A DNA stretch of 64,000 nucleotides from Patescibacteria group bacterium (GTDB lineage: Bacteria > Patescibacteriota > Minisyncoccia > Phycocordibacterales > GCA-2747955), in assembly GCA_048538215.1 (NCBI GenBank), contig JBLYPV010000001.1:75495-139494 (forward strand), given 5' to 3'. Under the pieces are notes generated by a model. The model did no database searches and was not told the origin of the DNA. It was given only the letters and a program-made list of their open reading frames with translations. A program made the translations under genes and the position numbers. Shown one piece after another: positions 3,618-23,331 of the stretch (positions within the stretch are counted from its first letter, which is position 1; every line of letters starts with the position of its first letter).

Positions 3618-4208
3618 TTATAAATTATCTCGATTTCTTAATTTTCTATAGCGAAAGCAATCAGTAGTGTGATCGTGTACCATACCAACAGCCTGCATAT
3701 ACGAATACATAATAGTGGGCCCCACAAAGCTGAAGCCATGTTTTTTTAAATCTTTGCTAATTCTTTGTGATAATTCGGTCTGGGCTGGCACTTCTTCTGC
3801 ACTTTGCCAAGTATTATAGATAGGAGATCCACCAACAAAGCTCCATAGATAATCACTAAAACTACCGTATCCTTCTTGTATATTAAGAAAAGCTTGGGCA
3901 TTAGTGATAGCTGAATTAATTTTGCGTGCATTACGAATAATATTCTTATTGCTCATAAGCTGGGCGATCTTTTGTTTATCATATTTTGCTATTTTGTGTG
4001 GGTCAAAATTATCAAATGCTTGTCGGTAAGCTTCTCGTTTCCCGAGAACGGTGCGCCAGGATAATCCAGCTTGAGCTCCTTCAAGGATAAGAAGCTCAAA
4101 AAGTAAGGTATCGCTATCTGTGGGTACGCCCCATTGAGTGTCGTGATACTCGCACATAACAGCATCTTCTTCGCTGGCCCAGGCACATCGAATACTTTGA
4201 TCTTTCAT
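3618..4208 (-). CDS. tag: DNA-3-methyladenine glycosylase I
   Basis: CAWAS...YHDTQWGVP...LLFELLILEGAQAGLSW signature of Tag. Confidence 0.85.
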   Translation of the reverse strand: MKDQSIRCAWASEEDAVMCEYHDTQWGVPTDSDTLLFELLILEGAQAGLSWRTVLGKREAYRQAFDNFDPHKIAKYDKQKIAQLMSNKNIIRNARKINSAITNAQAFLNIQEGYGSFSDYLWSFVGGSPIYNTWQSAEEVPAQTELSQRISKDLKKHGFSFVGPTIMYSYMQAVGMVHDHTTDCFRYRKLRNRDNL

Positions 4209-4833: not shown

Positions 4834-5397
4834 ATGGAAGAAAAAGCACAAATCATTCAATCATTTTATAAGCACAATAGGCGTATGCCAAGCTATGCAG
4901 AAATTTGTGAGCTCTTTGGCTATAAGAGCAAAAATGCTGCTGCCAAAATGGTACAAAAGCTTCAGCGATATGGTGTCTTAGAAAAAGATCCTACTGGTCG
5001 GCTCATTCCAAGTTTTAATCCTAGCTCTCTACGCTTACTTGGATATGTGGAAGCAGGCTTCCCATCGCCTGTAGAAGAGCAGGAGCTTGATACTATGACT
5101 CTCGATGATTGGCTTGTAAATGATGCTCTCGCTACATACATTCTCCGAGTCAAGGGAGATTCTATGATAGATGCCTCGATTGCTAATGGAGATTATATAC
5201 TTGTTGAGCGTACCCAGAATGTGCGTGTAGGTGATATTGTAGTGGCCTGTATTGATGGCGAATGGACGCTCAAATATCTTCGAGAAAAGAATGGTGCCCG
5301 CTATCTTGAGGCAGCTAATAGTGAATATGATGATATGTATCCACAAGAATCATTAGAAATTGAAGCTCGGGTAATTTCAGTCATTCGCAAGTATTAG
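4834..5397 (+). CDS. lexA: LexA repressor (S24 peptidase)
   Basis: N-terminal winged HTH, Ala-Gly cleavage region, C-terminal S24 catalytic region with Ser (GDSM) and conserved Lys; start taken at MEEKAQ rather than the upstream ATG. Confidence 0.85.
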   Translation: MEEKAQIIQSFYKHNRRMPSYAEICELFGYKSKNAAAKMVQKLQRYGVLEKDPTGRLIPSFNPSSLRLLGYVEAGFPSPVEEQELDTMTLDDWLVNDALATYILRVKGDSMIDASIANGDYILVERTQNVRVGDIVVACIDGEWTLKYLREKNGARYLEAANSEYDDMYPQESLEIEARVISVIRKY

Positions 5398-5464
5398 ATG
5401 AGGGGAAAGTATGATCATACAAGATGTAAAAGCCAGGCTTATATAGCAATAGCACATTAGATAT

Positions 5465-8197: not shown

Positions 8198-9439
8198 TTA
8201 GATACTATTGCCCGCCACAAAGCCAGTAGTCCAACATAATTGGAGAGAATAGCCACCTGATGGGCGATGTATGTTGAGCAAGTCACCAATGATATACAAC
8301 CCTTGATGCAAGGTGGATTCCATAGTCTGCATATGTATTTCAGACAGTGAAACACCCCCATCGGCAATAACGGCTCGGTCAAATCCCATTGTGCCGGTAA
8401 TCGGAAAGCGTATATCTTTGAGTGATTGTACCAAGCGCTTGCGATCCTCTTTCCCAAGATCTCCACTTGGGAGCTCGGCTCCCAAGTGGTTGTAATTGAT
8501 GATCTCTGTAGCGAGCTTTTTTGGTAGTAATTCGCTTAGTGTATTGAGGAGGGTTTTCTTAGGGTGAGTATCTAGTAGCTTACGGATGCGCTTATCAAGT
8601 AGGTCGAGCTCTGTATCGGGATATAAATCGATTGAGCACTCCACATCAGTGTACCAAGAGAGTAGCTCAGATACCTTATGGCTTATATTAAGAATCATTG
8701 GGCCGGAAATACCAAAATGTGTAAATAAGACTTTGCCCTTTATGTTTATTTTTTGCTTACGATCGGCGTAGAAGCGTACCTTTGCAAAGGACCAATCGAT
8801 GCCCGCAAGACGGTGGAGCCATTTAGCATTTGTCTTGAGGGGCACGATGCTGGGATTGGGCTTGGCGATAGTGTGGCCTTACGATGCAAGCCAAGAAAAG
8901 CCATCGCCGGTAGAGCCAGTCTCAGGAGCAGCGTAGCCACCCGTGGAGAGAATAAGCTTTGATGCTTGAAATGTGCCCTTACTTGTTGCTACTTGCCATA
9001 GGGTATCTTTTTTAGTGATTGTTTTTACTTGGTGATTTATTTGTATCTCGACACCACTTTCTCGGCAATAGCTCTGCATTGTGGTGGTCACATCTAAAGC
9101 TCGTTCGCTTCGTGGGAACATACGTGTACGAGCTTGGGTGACAAGTGGTAGACCTTTGGATTCAAAAAAATTAATAGTGTGCTGGACATTAAATATAGAA
9201 AAGGGAGTATAGAGATATTTTTTTGCACTTGGAAAACTTTCTAAAAAATCCTTGAAGTCGAGCTTGTGATTGGTGATATTGCATCGCCCACCTCCGGTAA
9301 TGGAAAGCTTTTTGCCCACCTTGCTATTTTTTTCTAGGAGGAGGACTCGCTTACCTCGCTCGCTTGCTCGACCAGCAGCCATCATGCCCGCTGGCCCAGC
9401 CCCAATCACAATAACATCATAGATTTGGGCGTTTTTCAT
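8198..9439 (-). pseudogene. HI0933-like NAD(P)/FAD-dependent oxidoreductase interrupted by one in-frame TAA
   Basis: N-terminal part VIVIGAGPAGMMAAG (Rossmann fold) and C-terminal part are in the same frame, separated only by TAA at 8879..8881 (...SWLAS*GHTIAKPNPSIVPLKT...). Confidence 0.7.
8463..8489. repeat. Palindromic repeat copy CCACTTGGGAGC-TCG-GCTCCCAAGTGG, in-frame inside the flavoprotein gene (encodes HLGAELPSG)
   Basis: 12 bp arms, 3 nt loop; identical core to copies at 15279 and 22415. Confidence 0.85.
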
Positions 9440-21049: not shown

Positions 21050-21643
21050 ATGGATGCTTATTTTCAAAAAATCAAAAAGGAGATTATGAATGATCCTGCA
21101 AATAGGGATTACACTAAAAAGGGGATAGAGCCACTATTTACTGCTTCTCGCAAAGCAAAAATCATTATTATTGGGCAAGCCCCAGGCAAAAAGGCACAAG
21201 ATGCTGGTATTATATGGGATGATATGAGTGGTGATAATTTGCGAGAATACTTGGGAGTGAGTAGGGAAATTTTTTATGATGATGAGCAGATAGCACTTAT
21301 TCCTATGGATTTTTATTTTCCAGGCAAGGGAAGAAATGGTGATCTAGCTCCTAGAAAAGAGTTTGCAAAAAAATGGCATACACCTATTTTTAACGAGCTT
21401 AGGGATGATGCTTTGGTGATAGTGGTAGGGCAGTATGCTCAGAAAGAATATTTGCCAGATAATATACGATACGCCAACCTTACAGAAAATGTAGAGCATT
21501 ATAAAGAATTTTTAAAATTCAATATTTTTCCTCTACCCCATCCTTCTCCAAGAAATAATATTTGGCTAAGCAAGCACCCTTGGTTTAAAAAAGATGTCGT
21601 TCCTGTTCTTCAAAGAGAAGTAGCAAAAAGATTATCTATATAG
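21050..21643 (+). CDS. Uracil-DNA glycosylase superfamily protein (family 4/5-like)
   Basis: IIGQAPG motif A and HPSPRN motif B. Confidence 0.6.
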   Translation: MDAYFQKIKKEIMNDPANRDYTKKGIEPLFTASRKAKIIIIGQAPGKKAQDAGIIWDDMSGDNLREYLGVSREIFYDDEQIALIPMDFYFPGKGRNGDLAPRKEFAKKWHTPIFNELRDDALVIVVGQYAQKEYLPDNIRYANLTENVEHYKEFLKFNIFPLPHPSPRNNIWLSKHPWFKKDVVPVLQREVAKRLSI

Positions 21644-21646
21644 AAG

Positions 21647-21672
21647 CCACTTAGGGACCGGGTCCCTAAGTG
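21647..21672. repeat. Variant palindromic repeat CCACTTAGGGACC-G-GGTCCCTAAGTG directly after the UDG stop
   Basis: 12 bp perfect arms; shares CCACTT...AAGTG termini with the main palindrome family. Confidence 0.75.
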
Positions 21673-21733
21673 AATCGGATTACTTGCACCCCATAGTCAT
21701 TTTGATATACTATCGAGCACTCACTGAGCTAGA

Positions 21734-21794
21734 TATCTCGTAAAACTGCCTAATAATATAGAATCCACATCGCGGAGTGGAGAAATGGTATCTC
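21734..21794 (+). repeat. Direct repeat copy 1 (61 nt): tRNA leader plus 5' fragment (acceptor strand and D-arm) of tRNA-fMet
   Basis: Identical to 21833..21893; followed by an inverted fragment of the fMet anticodon arm (GGTTATGAGCC, 21818..21828). Confidence 0.85.
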
Positions 21795-21832
21795 CAGGTG
21801 AGAATCAGAGCGAATAAGGGTTATGAGCCGGG

Positions 21833-21893
21833 TATCTCGTAAAACTGCCTAATAATATAGAATCCACATCGCGGAGTGGAGAAATGGTATCTC
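21833..21893 (+). repeat. Direct repeat copy 2 (61 nt) running into the complete tRNA-fMet
   Basis: Exact 61 nt identity with copy 1, 99 nt period. Confidence 0.85.
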
Positions 21894-21940
21894 GGGAGGC
21901 TCATAACCTCCAGAAGTTGGTTCGATTCCAACCTCCGCAA
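21870..21940 (+). tRNA. tRNA-fMet, putative initiator (anticodon CAT, C1:A72 mismatch)
   Basis: Acceptor CGCGGAG/CTCCGCA with unpaired C1-A72, D-stem GAGA/TCTC, anticodon loop CTCATAA, T-loop TTCGATT; anticodon stem GGAGG/CCTCC has only two of the three canonical initiator G:C pairs. Confidence 0.7.
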
Positions 21941-21980
21941 CAAGTTAGACCGAGGGCGACTAACCCGAGAACTTGCTTCT

Positions 21981-21998
21981 CTAGAGCAAAAGCTCTAG
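21981..21998 (+). other. Hairpin CTAGAGC-AAAA-GCTCTAG between two tRNA genes
   Basis: 7 bp perfect stem; possible processing or structural element. Confidence 0.35.
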
Positions 21999-22010
21999 CC
22001 CAGATTATTT

Positions 22011-22087
22011 GTCAGGGTAGCTCAGATGGTTAGAGCGCAGCACTCATAACGCTGAGGTCGTGGGTTCAATCCCCACCCTTGACACCA
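22011..22087 (+). tRNA. tRNA with CAT anticodon (elongator Met or lysidine-modified Ile2), CCA encoded
   Basis: GTCAGGGTAGCTCAGATGGTTAGAGC..., anticodon loop CTCATAA, T-arm GTGGGTTCAATCCCCAC. Confidence 0.75.
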
Positions 22088-22168
22088 ATAAGTATTCAGA
22101 TCTTGCATTTATCAATAGTTTGGATATACTTTCAAAAAATTTTGTGCGTAATCACACTAAACTAAAAA

Positions 22169-22210
22169 AATAAGCCAAGCATATTATATATATGCGGTCG
22201 TAGCTCAACT
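22169..22210 (+). repeat. Direct repeat copy 1 (42 nt): leader plus 5' fragment of tRNA-Asp
   Basis: AATAAGCCAAGCATATTATATATATGCGGTCGTAGCTCAACT identical to 22267..22308. Confidence 0.85.
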
Positions 22211-22266
22211 CAAGGTAAGAATAAAGCGAGCACTTGGTGCGGATATCACCTAAAACTATCGAAAGG

Positions 22267-22308
22267 AATAAGCCAAGCATATTATATATATGCGGTCGTA
22301 GCTCAACT
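22267..22308 (+). repeat. Direct repeat copy 2 (42 nt) running into the complete tRNA-Asp
   Basis: Exact identity with copy 1, 98 nt period. Confidence 0.85.
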
Positions 22309-22368
22309 GGTTAGAGCACCCGCCTGTCACGCGGGAGGCTGAGGGTTCAAATCCCTTCGACCGCGCCA
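22292..22368 (+). tRNA. tRNA-Asp (anticodon GTC), CCA encoded
   Basis: GCGGTCGTAGCTCAACTGGTTAGAGC, anticodon loop CTGTCAC, T-loop GGTTCAAATCC. Confidence 0.85.
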
Positions 22369-22375
22369 AGTAAAG

Positions 22376-22395
22376 TCGCCTTTAGAGGCGATTTT
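22376..22395 (+). terminator. Rho-independent terminator (TCGCCT-TTAG-AGGCGA + TTTT)
   Basis: 6 bp stem, T-run; ends the plus-strand tRNA cluster. Confidence 0.65.
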
Positions 22396-22414
22396 GTCTT
22401 ACAGGAAAGAAAGC

Positions 22415-22447
22415 AAGCCACTTGGGAGCTCGGCTCCCAAGTGGCTT
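22415..22447. repeat. Palindromic repeat, longest intergenic copy AAGCCACTTGGGAGC-TCG-GCTCCCAAGTGGCTT (15 bp arms)
   Basis: Perfect inverted arms; lies between convergent tRNA clusters. Confidence 0.85.
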
Positions 22448-22467
22448 ATGTAGTACCAAATAATGAA

Positions 22468-22485
22468 AAGACCTTTTCAGGTCTT
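22468..22485 (-). terminator. Hairpin AAGACC-TGAAAA-GGTCTT plus T-rich tract on minus strand, terminator for tRNA-Thr(GGT)
   Basis: 6 bp stem immediately 3' of the minus-strand tRNA. Confidence 0.5.
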
Positions 22486-22487
22486 TG

Positions 22488-22563
22488 TGGAGCCACCGCG
22501 CAGGGTCGAACTGCGGACCTCATCCTTACCATGGATGCGCTCTACCTACTGAGCTACGGCGGC
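22488..22563 (-). tRNA. tRNA-Thr (anticodon GGT), CCA encoded
   Basis: Reverse complement GCCGCCGTAGCTCAGTAGGTAGAGC...ATGGTAA...GCAGTTCGACCCTGC...CGGTGGCTCCA. Confidence 0.8.
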
Positions 22564-22650
22564 TTAGACTCCGCGGGGAATAGTGTACTATATTGCCCCA
22601 GCTATTTCAAATAATCCTTCTTAGAAAAAATCTGCTACAATACTTTTATT

Positions 22651-23331
22651 ATGGGTACACTATTTGTGGTCGCTACACCAATTGGAAATCTAGAGGATAT
22701 TACTTATCGAGCGGTACGTATTTTGGGCGAGGTAGACACTATTTTATGTGAGGATACTCGGGTCACCAAGCGCTTACTTACTCATTATAATATTGATACA
22801 CCAGTTTTATCTTATCACGCGCACAGCGAGAGCTCGCGTAGTGATGATATTATAGAGCGTCTTGTCGGTGGTGAAAAAATGGCACTAGTATCTGATGCAG
22901 GCACGCCCACCATCTCTGATCCGGGTGTACAGCTCGTATCTCGAATCTATAGCGAATATCTTGATAAAATTCAGGTCATAGCAATTCCAGGACCTTCGGC
23001 GCTTACTACCGCTTTCTCAATTTCTGGCGTGGGTGGCAATCAATTTATTTTTATGGGCTATTTCCCGCACAAAAAAGGCAGGGAGACTTTATTTAACGAA
23101 ATAGCTTCAAGTGCCCGCCCTGTAATATTTTATGAATCACCTCACCGTATCGAAAAGACCCTCGCTTCTTTGGCAGAGCACTTAGAAGCTACACGACGAG
23201 TAATCATCGCTCGAGAGCTTACCAAAATTCACGAGCAGGTAGTACAAGGCACTGCTCAAGAAGTACAAGCATATTTTATTGAACATCCAGATAAGGTACG
23301 AGGGGAATTCGTAGTAGTTGTGGATAATTAA
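22651..23331 (+). CDS. rsmI: 16S rRNA (cytidine1402-2'-O)-methyltransferase
   Basis: GTLFVVATPIGNLEDIT... tetrapyrrole-methylase fold motifs of RsmI. Confidence 0.85.
   Translation: MGTLFVVATPIGNLEDITYRAVRILGEVDTILCEDTRVTKRLLTHYNIDTPVLSYHAHSESSRSDDIIERLVGGEKMALVSDAGTPTISDPGVQLVSRIYSEYLDKIQVIAIPGPSALTTAFSISGVGGNQFIFMGYFPHKKGRETLFNEIASSARPVIFYESPHRIEKTLASLAEHLEATRRVIIARELTKIHEQVVQGTAQEVQAYFIEHPDKVRGEFVVVVDN

Follow-up and report, generated by a model that had tools for sequence, protein, structure and literature searches.

In the 64,000-nucleotide (nt) stretch of a Patescibacteria group bacterium genome analyzed here (assembly GCA_048538215.1, contig JBLYPV010000001.1, positions 75,495 to 139,494 of the forward strand; hereafter the window), the genes for the initiator tRNA, tRNA-fMet, and for tRNA-Asp are each preceded by a partial copy of themselves. 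The explanation that we favor, and to which as a whole we assign a probability of about 0.55, is that the copy upstream of tRNA-fMet is what remains of a full-length tandem duplicate of this gene, now retained in the 5' leader of its functional twin and possibly acting by pairing with it, and that the copy upstream of tRNA-Asp is a younger duplication. The fMet locus is made up of the following parts.

21684-21711, plus strand: promoter of the fMet-Met operon, TTGCAC (-35)-N16-TATACT (-10), upstream of the pseudo-copy and conserved in relatives.
21712-21770, plus strand: unit-1 leader, in which ~20 nt of ancestral promoter-proximal sequence precede a copy of the unit-2 leader, with a hairpin (TGAG 21725-21728 / CTCG 21737-21740) followed by TAAAACTG (21741-21748); identical or nearly identical to 21824-21869.
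21771-21794, plus strand: nt 1-24 of the pseudo-tRNA-fMet (5' acceptor strand and D-arm), hereafter the decoy; 24/24 identical to 21870-21893.
21795-21832, plus strand: X', the conserved core of the remodelled pseudo-tRNA body, with the invariant blocks TCAGAGCGAATAA (21805-21817) and GGTTATGAGCCG (21819-21830).
21819-21829, plus strand: the anti-anticodon element GGTTATGAGCC, at the former T-arm position, a perfect complement of tRNA nt 29-39.
21833-21869, plus strand: leader of unit 2, with a hairpin (21824-21839), TAAAACTG (21840-21847), a variable part and ATCCACAT, up to the RNase P site; repeats 21734-21770 exactly.
21870-21941, plus strand: the functional initiator tRNA-fMet gene, Met(CAT), found by ARAGORN and by Rfam (59.9 bits); 71/72 identical to the gene of a relative, L092.
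22011-22087, plus strand: elongator tRNA-Met, found by ARAGORN and Rfam, the second gene of the fMet-Met operon.

The window contains 12 tRNA genes. The sequence of the tRNA-Met(CAT) gene at 21870-21941 shows a C1xA72 mismatch along with an A11:U24 pair, which identifies it as the initiator. A sequence-only reading of this stretch had claimed that two tRNA loci share an architecture of upstream self-copies, and the repeats are exactly as it described them: 21734-21794 equals 21833-21893 (61 nt, period 99) at fMet, and 22169-22210 equals 22267-22308 (42 nt, period 98) at Asp, extending to 70 and 47 nt, respectively, if a few mismatches are allowed. Its description of the copied part as acceptor strand plus D-arm is correct for fMet, whose copy consists of leader plus tRNA nt 1-24 (the acceptor strand and the whole D-arm), and slightly overstated for Asp, whose copy consists of leader plus tRNA nt 1-17 only and stops within the D-loop. 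It was also right that no cargo DNA separates the copies, as the 75-81 nt between them at the two loci contain no open reading frame and no integrase. Neither 21771-21869 nor 22194-22291 yields an ARAGORN call or a Rfam tRNA match at E<=10, and thus the pseudo-copies are no longer recognizable as tRNAs.

By the proteins encoded around the locus, the genome belongs to the Candidate Phyla Radiation (CPR)/Patescibacteria and is Paceibacterota- or Kaiserbacteria-like. Contigs of syntenic relatives were reached via homologues of RsmI and AtpG; synteny scans of GTDB and JGI via RsmI or UDG gave no close relatives, and the scans via AtpG succeeded. The tandem fMet arrangement is present in L092 (78% AtpG/RsmI identity), as in the window and with a period of ~100-102, and in L099 (70% identity), with a period of 99, while L102 possesses a 133-nt fMet leader with a decayed decoy of 12 nt. 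In L095, L096, L100, and L101 (68-70% identity) there is a single fMet gene, located 27-33 nt after a promoter of the same type. In the AtpG tree, the carriers of the duplication fall in two sister clades, and the duplication is therefore both derived and old. As the fMet arrangement occurs in three independent assemblies, from NCBI, JGI, and ENA, and as the two copies in L092 are only ~90% identical to each other, an assembly artefact, a worry that the sequence-only reading had raised, is ruled out.

That reading had also offered the copies as excision scars of an integrative element. Such an origin, as attL and attR of an element that excised or decayed, we consider, as with the artefact, extremely improbable. 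Partial tRNA genes do usually originate when genetic elements integrate (PMC9897764), and a classical 3' scar is found beside tRNA-Asp in L092. However, the copies in the window, of nt 1-24 and nt 1-17, represent the 5' part of the gene and lie upstream of it, rather than being the 3' part that an element would normally carry, and the short inter-copy segments encode no integrase. In addition, three species have the 75-nt segment at fMet in conserved form, and it runs collinear with the tRNA, and inspection of the relatives revealed no element at this site in any of them, only the same 75-78 nt between the copies, or a single copy. Precise excision, moreover, leaves no duplication.

A search for the promoter pattern TTGC-N18/19-TATACT returned three matches in 64 kb, with 0.48 expected, each directly upstream of tRNA genes (Val, fMet, and Asp). 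At both duplicated loci these promoters precede the first, truncated copy (21684-21711 and 22103-22130), and the fMet promoter type is conserved upstream of fMet in L092, L099, L102, L095, L096, and L100. The fMet-Met interval contains no promoter motif, unit 2 contains no promoter conserved among the genomes, the pattern being confined to the sequence upstream of unit 1, and no terminator-like site is present on the plus strand between the promoter and the tRNA. With the only conserved promoter located upstream of it, the pseudo-copy should therefore be transcribed, as a leader of 125-155 nt, and the conservation of the promoter motif makes this probable.

The same observations bear on the possibility of a promoter duplication, also raised by the sequence-only reading, in which a promoter in unit 2 would raise tRNA expression, or the first copy would be kept as the initially transcribed part of promoter function. 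A -10-like sequence does occur in unit 2 in the window, 6 nt before the tRNA (TAGAAT at fMet, TATTAT at Asp), unit 2 of a tRNA-Val gene in another genome, L103, contains TTGAAT-N16-TACTAT, and the piece that is retained is always the promoter-proximal one. Yet the -10-like sequences in the window are not accompanied by a -35, and they are not conserved in L092 (CAACAATCC) or in L099, whereas the one conserved promoter at fMet precedes the first copy. An origin of unit 1 by tandem duplication of upstream promoter DNA was also considered and rejected, X' being unrelated to the ancestral fMet promoter and leader (z ~0). Overall, we consider promoter duplication very unlikely.

The origin of the fMet pseudo-copy is best seen in L099, which is the least converted form: its direct repeat is limited to tRNA nt 1-24, its first leader is short (30 nt) and of the ancestral type, and 75 nt separate the copies. 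Unit 1 of L099 thus measures 24 + 75 nt, or 99 nt, and its tRNA-fMet with the spacer to tRNA-Met also measures 99 nt. Positions 61-99 of this unit align in register with tRNA nt 59-73 plus spacer (p=0.0026), the same alignment against the outgroup L096 gives p=0.0006, with three controls not significant, and the whole unit beyond nt 25 resembles tRNA plus spacer with z=3.9 (p=0.001). The equal length and the in-register alignment argue that unit 1 is a decayed full-length tandem copy of the tRNA, an origin that we hold to be highly probable judging from these comparisons; the "truncated duplicate" of the sequence-only reading would in fact be a duplicate of the tRNA and spacer together. The longer repeat of the window and L092 would be a secondary extension into the leader, because L099 possesses a short, unrelated leader of 30 nt in its place.

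The inverted match to the anticodon arm that the sequence-only reading had noted in the fMet spacer is also real, GGTTATGAGCC (21819-21829) being an exact reverse complement, over 11 nt, of tRNA-fMet nt 29-39 (21898-21908); it and its target each occur once in the window (shuffle p ~0.001). The complement is thus exact, and what does not stand is the label of an inverted anticodon fragment, as the element occupies the former T-loop position of the pseudo-copy. In L092 and L099 it is found at unit positions 50-60, which is the position of the T-arm, GG-TTCGATT-CC, in the real tRNA-fMet (T-arm sequence GGUUCGAUUCC). The former T-loop TTCGATT has become TTATGAG by five substitutions, and it now complements the anticodon loop CTCATAA perfectly.

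Other origins and identities of the spacer were rejected. One was that the spacer is an inverted copy of the 3' two-thirds of the tRNA, including the T-arm; the resemblance outside the 11-mer is weak (p=0.05), the similarity worsens in L092 and L099 while the T-arm is invariant, and an in-situ inversion of nt 25-60 did not fit. A dispersed repeat or mobile element is dismissed, since no further copy of X' or of the insertion at Asp exists in the ~840 kb of sequence compared, elsewhere in the window, or in viral contigs. A micro-reading frame starting at the AUG of the 11-mer would, by hand translation, have 9, >18, and 6 codons in the three genomes. Known RNA families were ruled out as well, as Rfam recognized only tRNAs and noise at 21500-22700 at E<=10, and only tRNAs in the whole window at gathering thresholds.

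As to the conservation of the leader, third codon positions of atpA, atpG, and rsmI are only 41-48% identical between the window and L092, i.e., saturated, and the variable parts of the leader are 52-61% identical. By comparison, the decoy is identical at 23 of 24 positions between these two genomes (in L099 the decoy matches its own tRNA at 24/24), the core X' is 85% identical between the window and L092 and 97% identical between L092 and L099 over 39 nt, and the 15-mer ATCTCGTAAAACTGC is identical across all four units of the window and L092. Variable parts of the leader differ from species to species, yet they match between the two units within one genome, indicative of concerted evolution, and the variants G9 and G6 are common to the decoy and the gene. 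The initiator tRNA of the window possesses G9 (21878; nt 9 of the decoy is 21779), while L092, L099, and all the outgroups possess A9, and G9 is the decoy variant in both the window and L092, a pattern suggesting gene conversion from the pseudo-copy into the functional tRNA-fMet. Such conversion does not account for the conservation of the core, because the core is without a second copy in the sequence compared, and thus purifying selection on the leader core is, from these alignments, very likely.

This contrast bears on a neutral explanation, according to which both repeats are decaying tandem duplications, the identity of their 5' parts reflects gene conversion, and the core and its complementarity are coincidental or hitch-hiking. 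Decayed 5' pseudo-copies are indeed common (7 of 50 genes in the census below), most of them without complementarity to their own tRNA, L102 has lost the core, the Asp copy looks neutral, and X' has no fold of its own. Nevertheless, X' has nothing to convert against and is still 85-97% identical, well above both the third positions and the flanking leader, its substitutions are placed non-randomly, and a useless direct repeat of 99 nt would be expected to be deleted from the small CPR genomes. We therefore regard a neutral relic as unlikely.

The explanation that we favor begins in the ancestor of a small, Paceibacterota-like CPR clade, in which a 99-nt unit of tRNA-fMet plus 3' spacer would have been duplicated in tandem. 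The upstream copy would have lost its status as a tRNA and would have been retained between the sole conserved promoter and the functional gene, so that transcription would include it in a 5' leader of 125-155 nt, presumably cut off by RNase P. Its nt 1-24 would have been kept identical or nearly so to the functional gene through concerted evolution, while its middle was remodelled into a nearly invariant core of ~40 nt, in which the former T-loop UUAUGAG, inside GGUUAUGAGCC, complements the anticodon stem-loop of the initiator. The repeat would later have been extended into the leader, to 61-70 nt, in the lineage of the window and L092. The likeliest role for the leader would be in cis, as an "anti-tRNA": in the nascent tRNA, the 3' acceptor strand would be bound by the decoy strand and the anticodon arm by the anti-anticodon. 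The resulting non-cloverleaf conformer, approximately equal in stability to the native fold, would hold back or tune processing by RNase P, or use of the initiator, until the leader is cut. There are precedents for control at this step: bacterial RNase P is inhibited by pairing of a leader with the 3'-RCCA (PMC9433436), and in a designed system leader sequestration controls RNase P cleavage (PMC7897497).

What the folding predictions offer in support is as follows. The 11-nt perfect complement to the anticodon arm is present in all three carriers, and the duplex energies of X' with the tRNA are far more favorable than those of shuffled sequences (z -4.7, -3.9, and -3.9), mainly due to a block of 11-12 nt. 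X' alone shows no notable fold (z ~0), with a minimum free energy (MFE) structure that differs in each genome, so that an autonomous structure was rejected. The consensus fold of the three genomes joins the decoy strand to the 3' acceptor strand and blocks of X' to the T, variable, and anticodon regions. The best sequestered fold is predicted to be at least as stable as the best cloverleaf fold in each of the three carriers (-60.5/-52.7, -54.7/-54.7, and -52.2/-47.6 kcal/mol), while in three single-copy outgroups the MFE structure is the cloverleaf. Substitutions avoid the tRNA-paired columns (2/33 paired versus 10/21 unpaired; Fisher p=0.0006), a test that is partly circular, as the structure was derived from the same three sequences.

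This circularity is one of several points that weigh against the explanation we favor. The tRNA partner is invariant, and it thus provides no compensatory changes to prove the pairing; complementarity beyond the block of 11-12 nt is significant in the window only (z -3.5 versus -1.5 and -0.4); the two conformers are isoenergetic in L092; and the fold predictions ignore tertiary structure, modifications, and co-transcriptional folding. The change of TTCGATT to TTATGAG would occur by chance at ~1e-3, or perhaps 1e-2 if other "interesting" targets are allowed for, the conserved core is carried by only three genomes, and L102 has apparently lost it without a replacement. Transcription of the leader is deduced solely from conserved promoter motifs. 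Finally, the Asp copy possesses no anti-anticodon and no significant complementarity to tRNA-Asp (z -1.0), and therefore the two loci share an architecture, not demonstrably a function. With these points considered, the models suggest a cis-acting role in maturation of the initiator tRNA, and we hold function through leader-tRNA pairing only tentatively, at somewhat less than even odds.

A conserved core with a perfect complement to the whole 7-nt anticodon loop might also be expected of a role in trans, the released leader binding the mature initiator tRNA by a 7-nt loop-loop contact, as a sponge blocking methionyl-tRNA synthetase or the 30S subunit, or of a core that is bound by a regulator or processing factor. 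The tyrT operon of Escherichia coli likewise releases a repeat-derived small RNA, RttR, containing part of the tRNA sequence, and a near-palindrome, ATAAC(C/T)GGTTAT, is present in L092 and L099. However, the leader and the tRNA are made 1:1, so that a sponge would require differential stability, and the partner protein is only hypothetical. In the window, the loss of 1 nt disrupts the near-palindrome, on which account a palindromic DNA operator, ATAACCGGTTAT, was rejected. Such roles are, in our estimate, quite unlikely.

A more far-reaching and, to us, doubtful proposal is that of a self-sensing riboregulator, whose 7-nt anti-anticodon loop, evolved from a T-loop, would pair with the CAU loop of the initiator, nascent (in cis) or mature (in trans), and whose 5' strand would compete for the 3' acceptor strand, thus gating RNase P maturation or titrating the initiator tRNA, with Patescibacteria perhaps habitually keeping 5' decoys. 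If true, this would amount to a T-box-like logic applied to a tRNA gene itself and built from its own dead copy.

The fMet-Met spacer offers a further observation. A block of this spacer, GCGACTAACCCGAGA, is the same in the window and L092, and it includes CCCGAGA (21965-21971), a perfect complement of tRNA-fMet nt 21-27, UCUCGGG (21890-21896), and of the leader motif UCUCG; judging from the sequence, this may be another long-range pairing element.

The second locus, that of tRNA-Asp, is organized as follows.

22103-22130, plus strand: tRNA-Asp promoter, TTGCAT-N16-TATACT, conserved in L092 and other relatives.
22131-22193, plus strand: Asp leader of unit 1, with a hairpin (TGTG 22143-22146 / CACA 22153-22156) and then TAAACTA (22158-22164).
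22194-22210, plus strand: extra copy of tRNA-Asp nt 1-17, within the exact repeat.
22211-22291, plus strand: inter-copy segment, a junction of ~23 nt (CAAGGTAAGAATAAAGCGAGCAC) and then a second copy of the Asp leader.
22292-22368, plus strand: the functional tRNA-Asp(GTC) gene, found by ARAGORN and Rfam (73.8 bits).

The gene is single-copy in five relatives (L092, L099, L095, L096, and L100), and compared to L092 the window possesses exactly 98 extra nt, which are the junction of ~23 nt, the second leader copy, and tRNA nt 1-17. The unit-1 leader, whose hairpin covaries, has its ortholog in the one Asp leader present in L092, L095, and L096, and the second leader copy has diverged (hairpin GGTG 22236-22239 / CACC 22247-22250, then TAAAACTA at 22251-22258). 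The junction and leader together resemble not only their own unit-1 leader (p=0.0004) but also the fMet spacer plus leader (p=0.0004) and the promoter-proximal fMet leader (p=0.0002), and the copy is not collinear with the body of the tRNA (z=0.9). We thus envisage a younger duplication of 98 nt, of leader plus tRNA nt 1-17, in the lineage of the window only, with a junction that is a paralog of the leader cassette of fMet, 420 nt upstream. This paralogy suggests ectopic conversion or template switching between similar leaders as the probable source of the duplication; template switching, which the sequence-only reading had put forward for both loci, remains reasonable for this junction and is limited to it. 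We see nothing pointing to selection on this duplication or to its function.

The Asp leaders show two features of their own. One is a module, a hairpin of 4-5 bp followed by (N)UAAA(A)CU, that precedes tRNA-Asp in every family member and is also part of the derived fMet leader (window 22143-22164, 22236-22258, 21725-21748, and 21824-21847; also L092, L095, L096, L099, and L100). In the 12 copies, each of the four stem positions forms a canonical or wobble pair, with the closing pair being of four types (U-A, G-C, C-G, and U-G), and the module might serve as a Nus site of the boxB/boxA kind or as a signal for processing. The other is pairing of the leader with the 3' acceptor end of the tRNA and its trailer, ACUUGGUGCGG (22232-22242) with CCGCGCCAAGU (22361-22371) in the window and UUUUGUGCG with CGCGCAAAA in L092, a compensatory change that tracks whether CCA is encoded. 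The CCA is encoded in tRNA-Met and tRNA-Asp of the window and is not encoded in their cluster mate, the initiator gene, which reads ...GCAACAAG (21940-21944, 22085-22087, 22366-22368); it is not encoded in the tRNA-Asp gene of L092 either (GCGCAAAA).

The fMet-Met-Asp cluster as a whole (21870-22368) is bracketed by two related palindromic, terminator-like hairpins, at 21644-21672 and 22415-22447 (AAGCCACTTRGG...). Relative to atpG/rsmI it is oriented on the plus strand in the window, L096, and L100 and on the minus strand in L092, L099, and L095, flips that imply at least three inversions.

The sequence-only reading had inferred a recurrent mechanism and had proposed a search for further tandem copies. 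The 10 remaining tRNA genes of the window lack such copies, and a census of the 50 tRNA genes in all the sampled Patescibacteria loci, with copies sought within 200 nt, did reveal similar 5' pseudo-copies elsewhere in Patescibacteria, at different tRNA genes. On the same strand, nt 1-12 recur upstream of 7/50 genes and nt 13-24 upstream of 5/50, and six of the seven upstream 5' copies lie 95-112 nt upstream, representing ~6 independent events. Across these 50 genes, internal or 3' pieces of tRNA were never found upstream, the downstream and antisense controls were likewise zero, and 3'-terminal pieces occur downstream only (2/50 genes). Examples from other genomes are the following.

L020, tRNA-Ile 2303-2375: 5' copy at -95, a decayed full-length copy (p=0.001).
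L021, tRNA-Asn 5119-5193: 5' copy at -112.
L034, tRNA-Pro 3780-3850: 5' copy at -41, with a perfect 14-nt complement of leader and trailer around the tRNA.
L103, tRNA-Val 5356-5430: 5' copy at -104, with the promoter-like sequence noted above in its unit 2.

Complementarity to the tRNA was rejected as a general property of these decoys, being confined to the fMet lineage; a 10-mer in L021 is the decayed anticodon stem of the copy itself. In L092, the 22 nt at 8482-8503, the 3' end of tRNA-Asp, recur 202 nt downstream (8684-8705), with ~180 nt of GC-rich sequence between, and this is, by analogy, the pattern classically seen where a small element has integrated or decayed at the 3' end of a tRNA, as opposed to the 5' copies.

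Translation-initiation capacity is set by the supply of initiator tRNA. If the leader modulates maturation of this tRNA, it would present a clear case of a dead gene copy reused to regulate its living twin, and would open a new way into the biogenesis of tRNAs in the CPR bacteria, which are uncultivated and poorly understood. Should the leader be without function, it is still the case that 5' pseudo-copies are retained frequently, and with polarity, between the promoter and the tRNA gene, which represents an unexplained mutational or selective bias in reduced genomes, and such 5' fragments could mislead both tRNA annotation and prediction of att sites.

In comparison with known systems, the fMet locus has parallels in several. 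One parallel is presented by tandem tRNA duplicates, such as the tandem initiator tRNA genes metZWV of E. coli. The head-to-tail unit of tRNA plus spacer, the period of ~100 nt, and concerted evolution between the copies are alike, whereas at fMet the upstream copy has ceased to be a tRNA, with nt 1-24 alone retained and the middle remodelled and conserved, and the whole would at least belong to the 5' leader of the gene that survives. Among classical systems, tyrTV of E. coli comes closest, with tandem repeats beside a tRNA gene that hold a terminal piece of the tRNA: in tyrTV-rttR each repeat spans 178 nt and includes the last ~19 nt of tRNA-Tyr, and the annotation of the region there is that of a small RNA, RttR, which is co-transcribed with tyrT and released by processing. 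The piece there is 3' and downstream, a mirror image of the fMet piece, which is 5' and upstream, between promoter and gene, and we know of no anticodon complement at tyrT. A third parallel is with the T-box leaders, in which a 5' leader is also complementary to a tRNA anticodon, and the UGGU of the fMet pseudo D-loop could even pair with the ACCA 3' end. However, the fMet leader gives no T-box match in Rfam (E<=10), it lacks a Stem I, a specifier loop, a terminator/antiterminator, and a Shine-Dalgarno sequestrator, its complement is 11 nt rather than a codon, and it precedes a tRNA gene rather than a gene for an aminoacyl-tRNA synthetase or an amino-acid gene; with no expression platform and a tRNA as the downstream gene, a T-box riboswitch was rejected. 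The tRNA fragments left by integrative elements (PMC9897764) also place a partial tRNA beside a complete gene, and they differ from the present case in that here the fragment is the 5' end, on the upstream side, with no cargo and with a conserved inter-copy sequence. Leaders that control RNase P (PMC9433436; PMC7897497) share with the role proposed for the fMet leader the principle of altering tRNA maturation through leader pairing, and the Asp leaders resemble them in pairing with the tRNA 3' end, with compensatory changes; those systems, however, employ a short leader-acceptor pairing or an engineered aptamer, whereas the putative competitor at fMet combines a pseudo-copy of the 5' part of the tRNA itself with an anti-anticodon. 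No natural leader element recognizing the anticodon of its own tRNA was found in Rfam or in the literature searches made. In conclusion, the feature is real, and a pseudo-tRNA that very probably began as a tandem duplicate and now probably forms part of a leader with an anti-anticodon is new relative to plain tandem tRNA duplicates.

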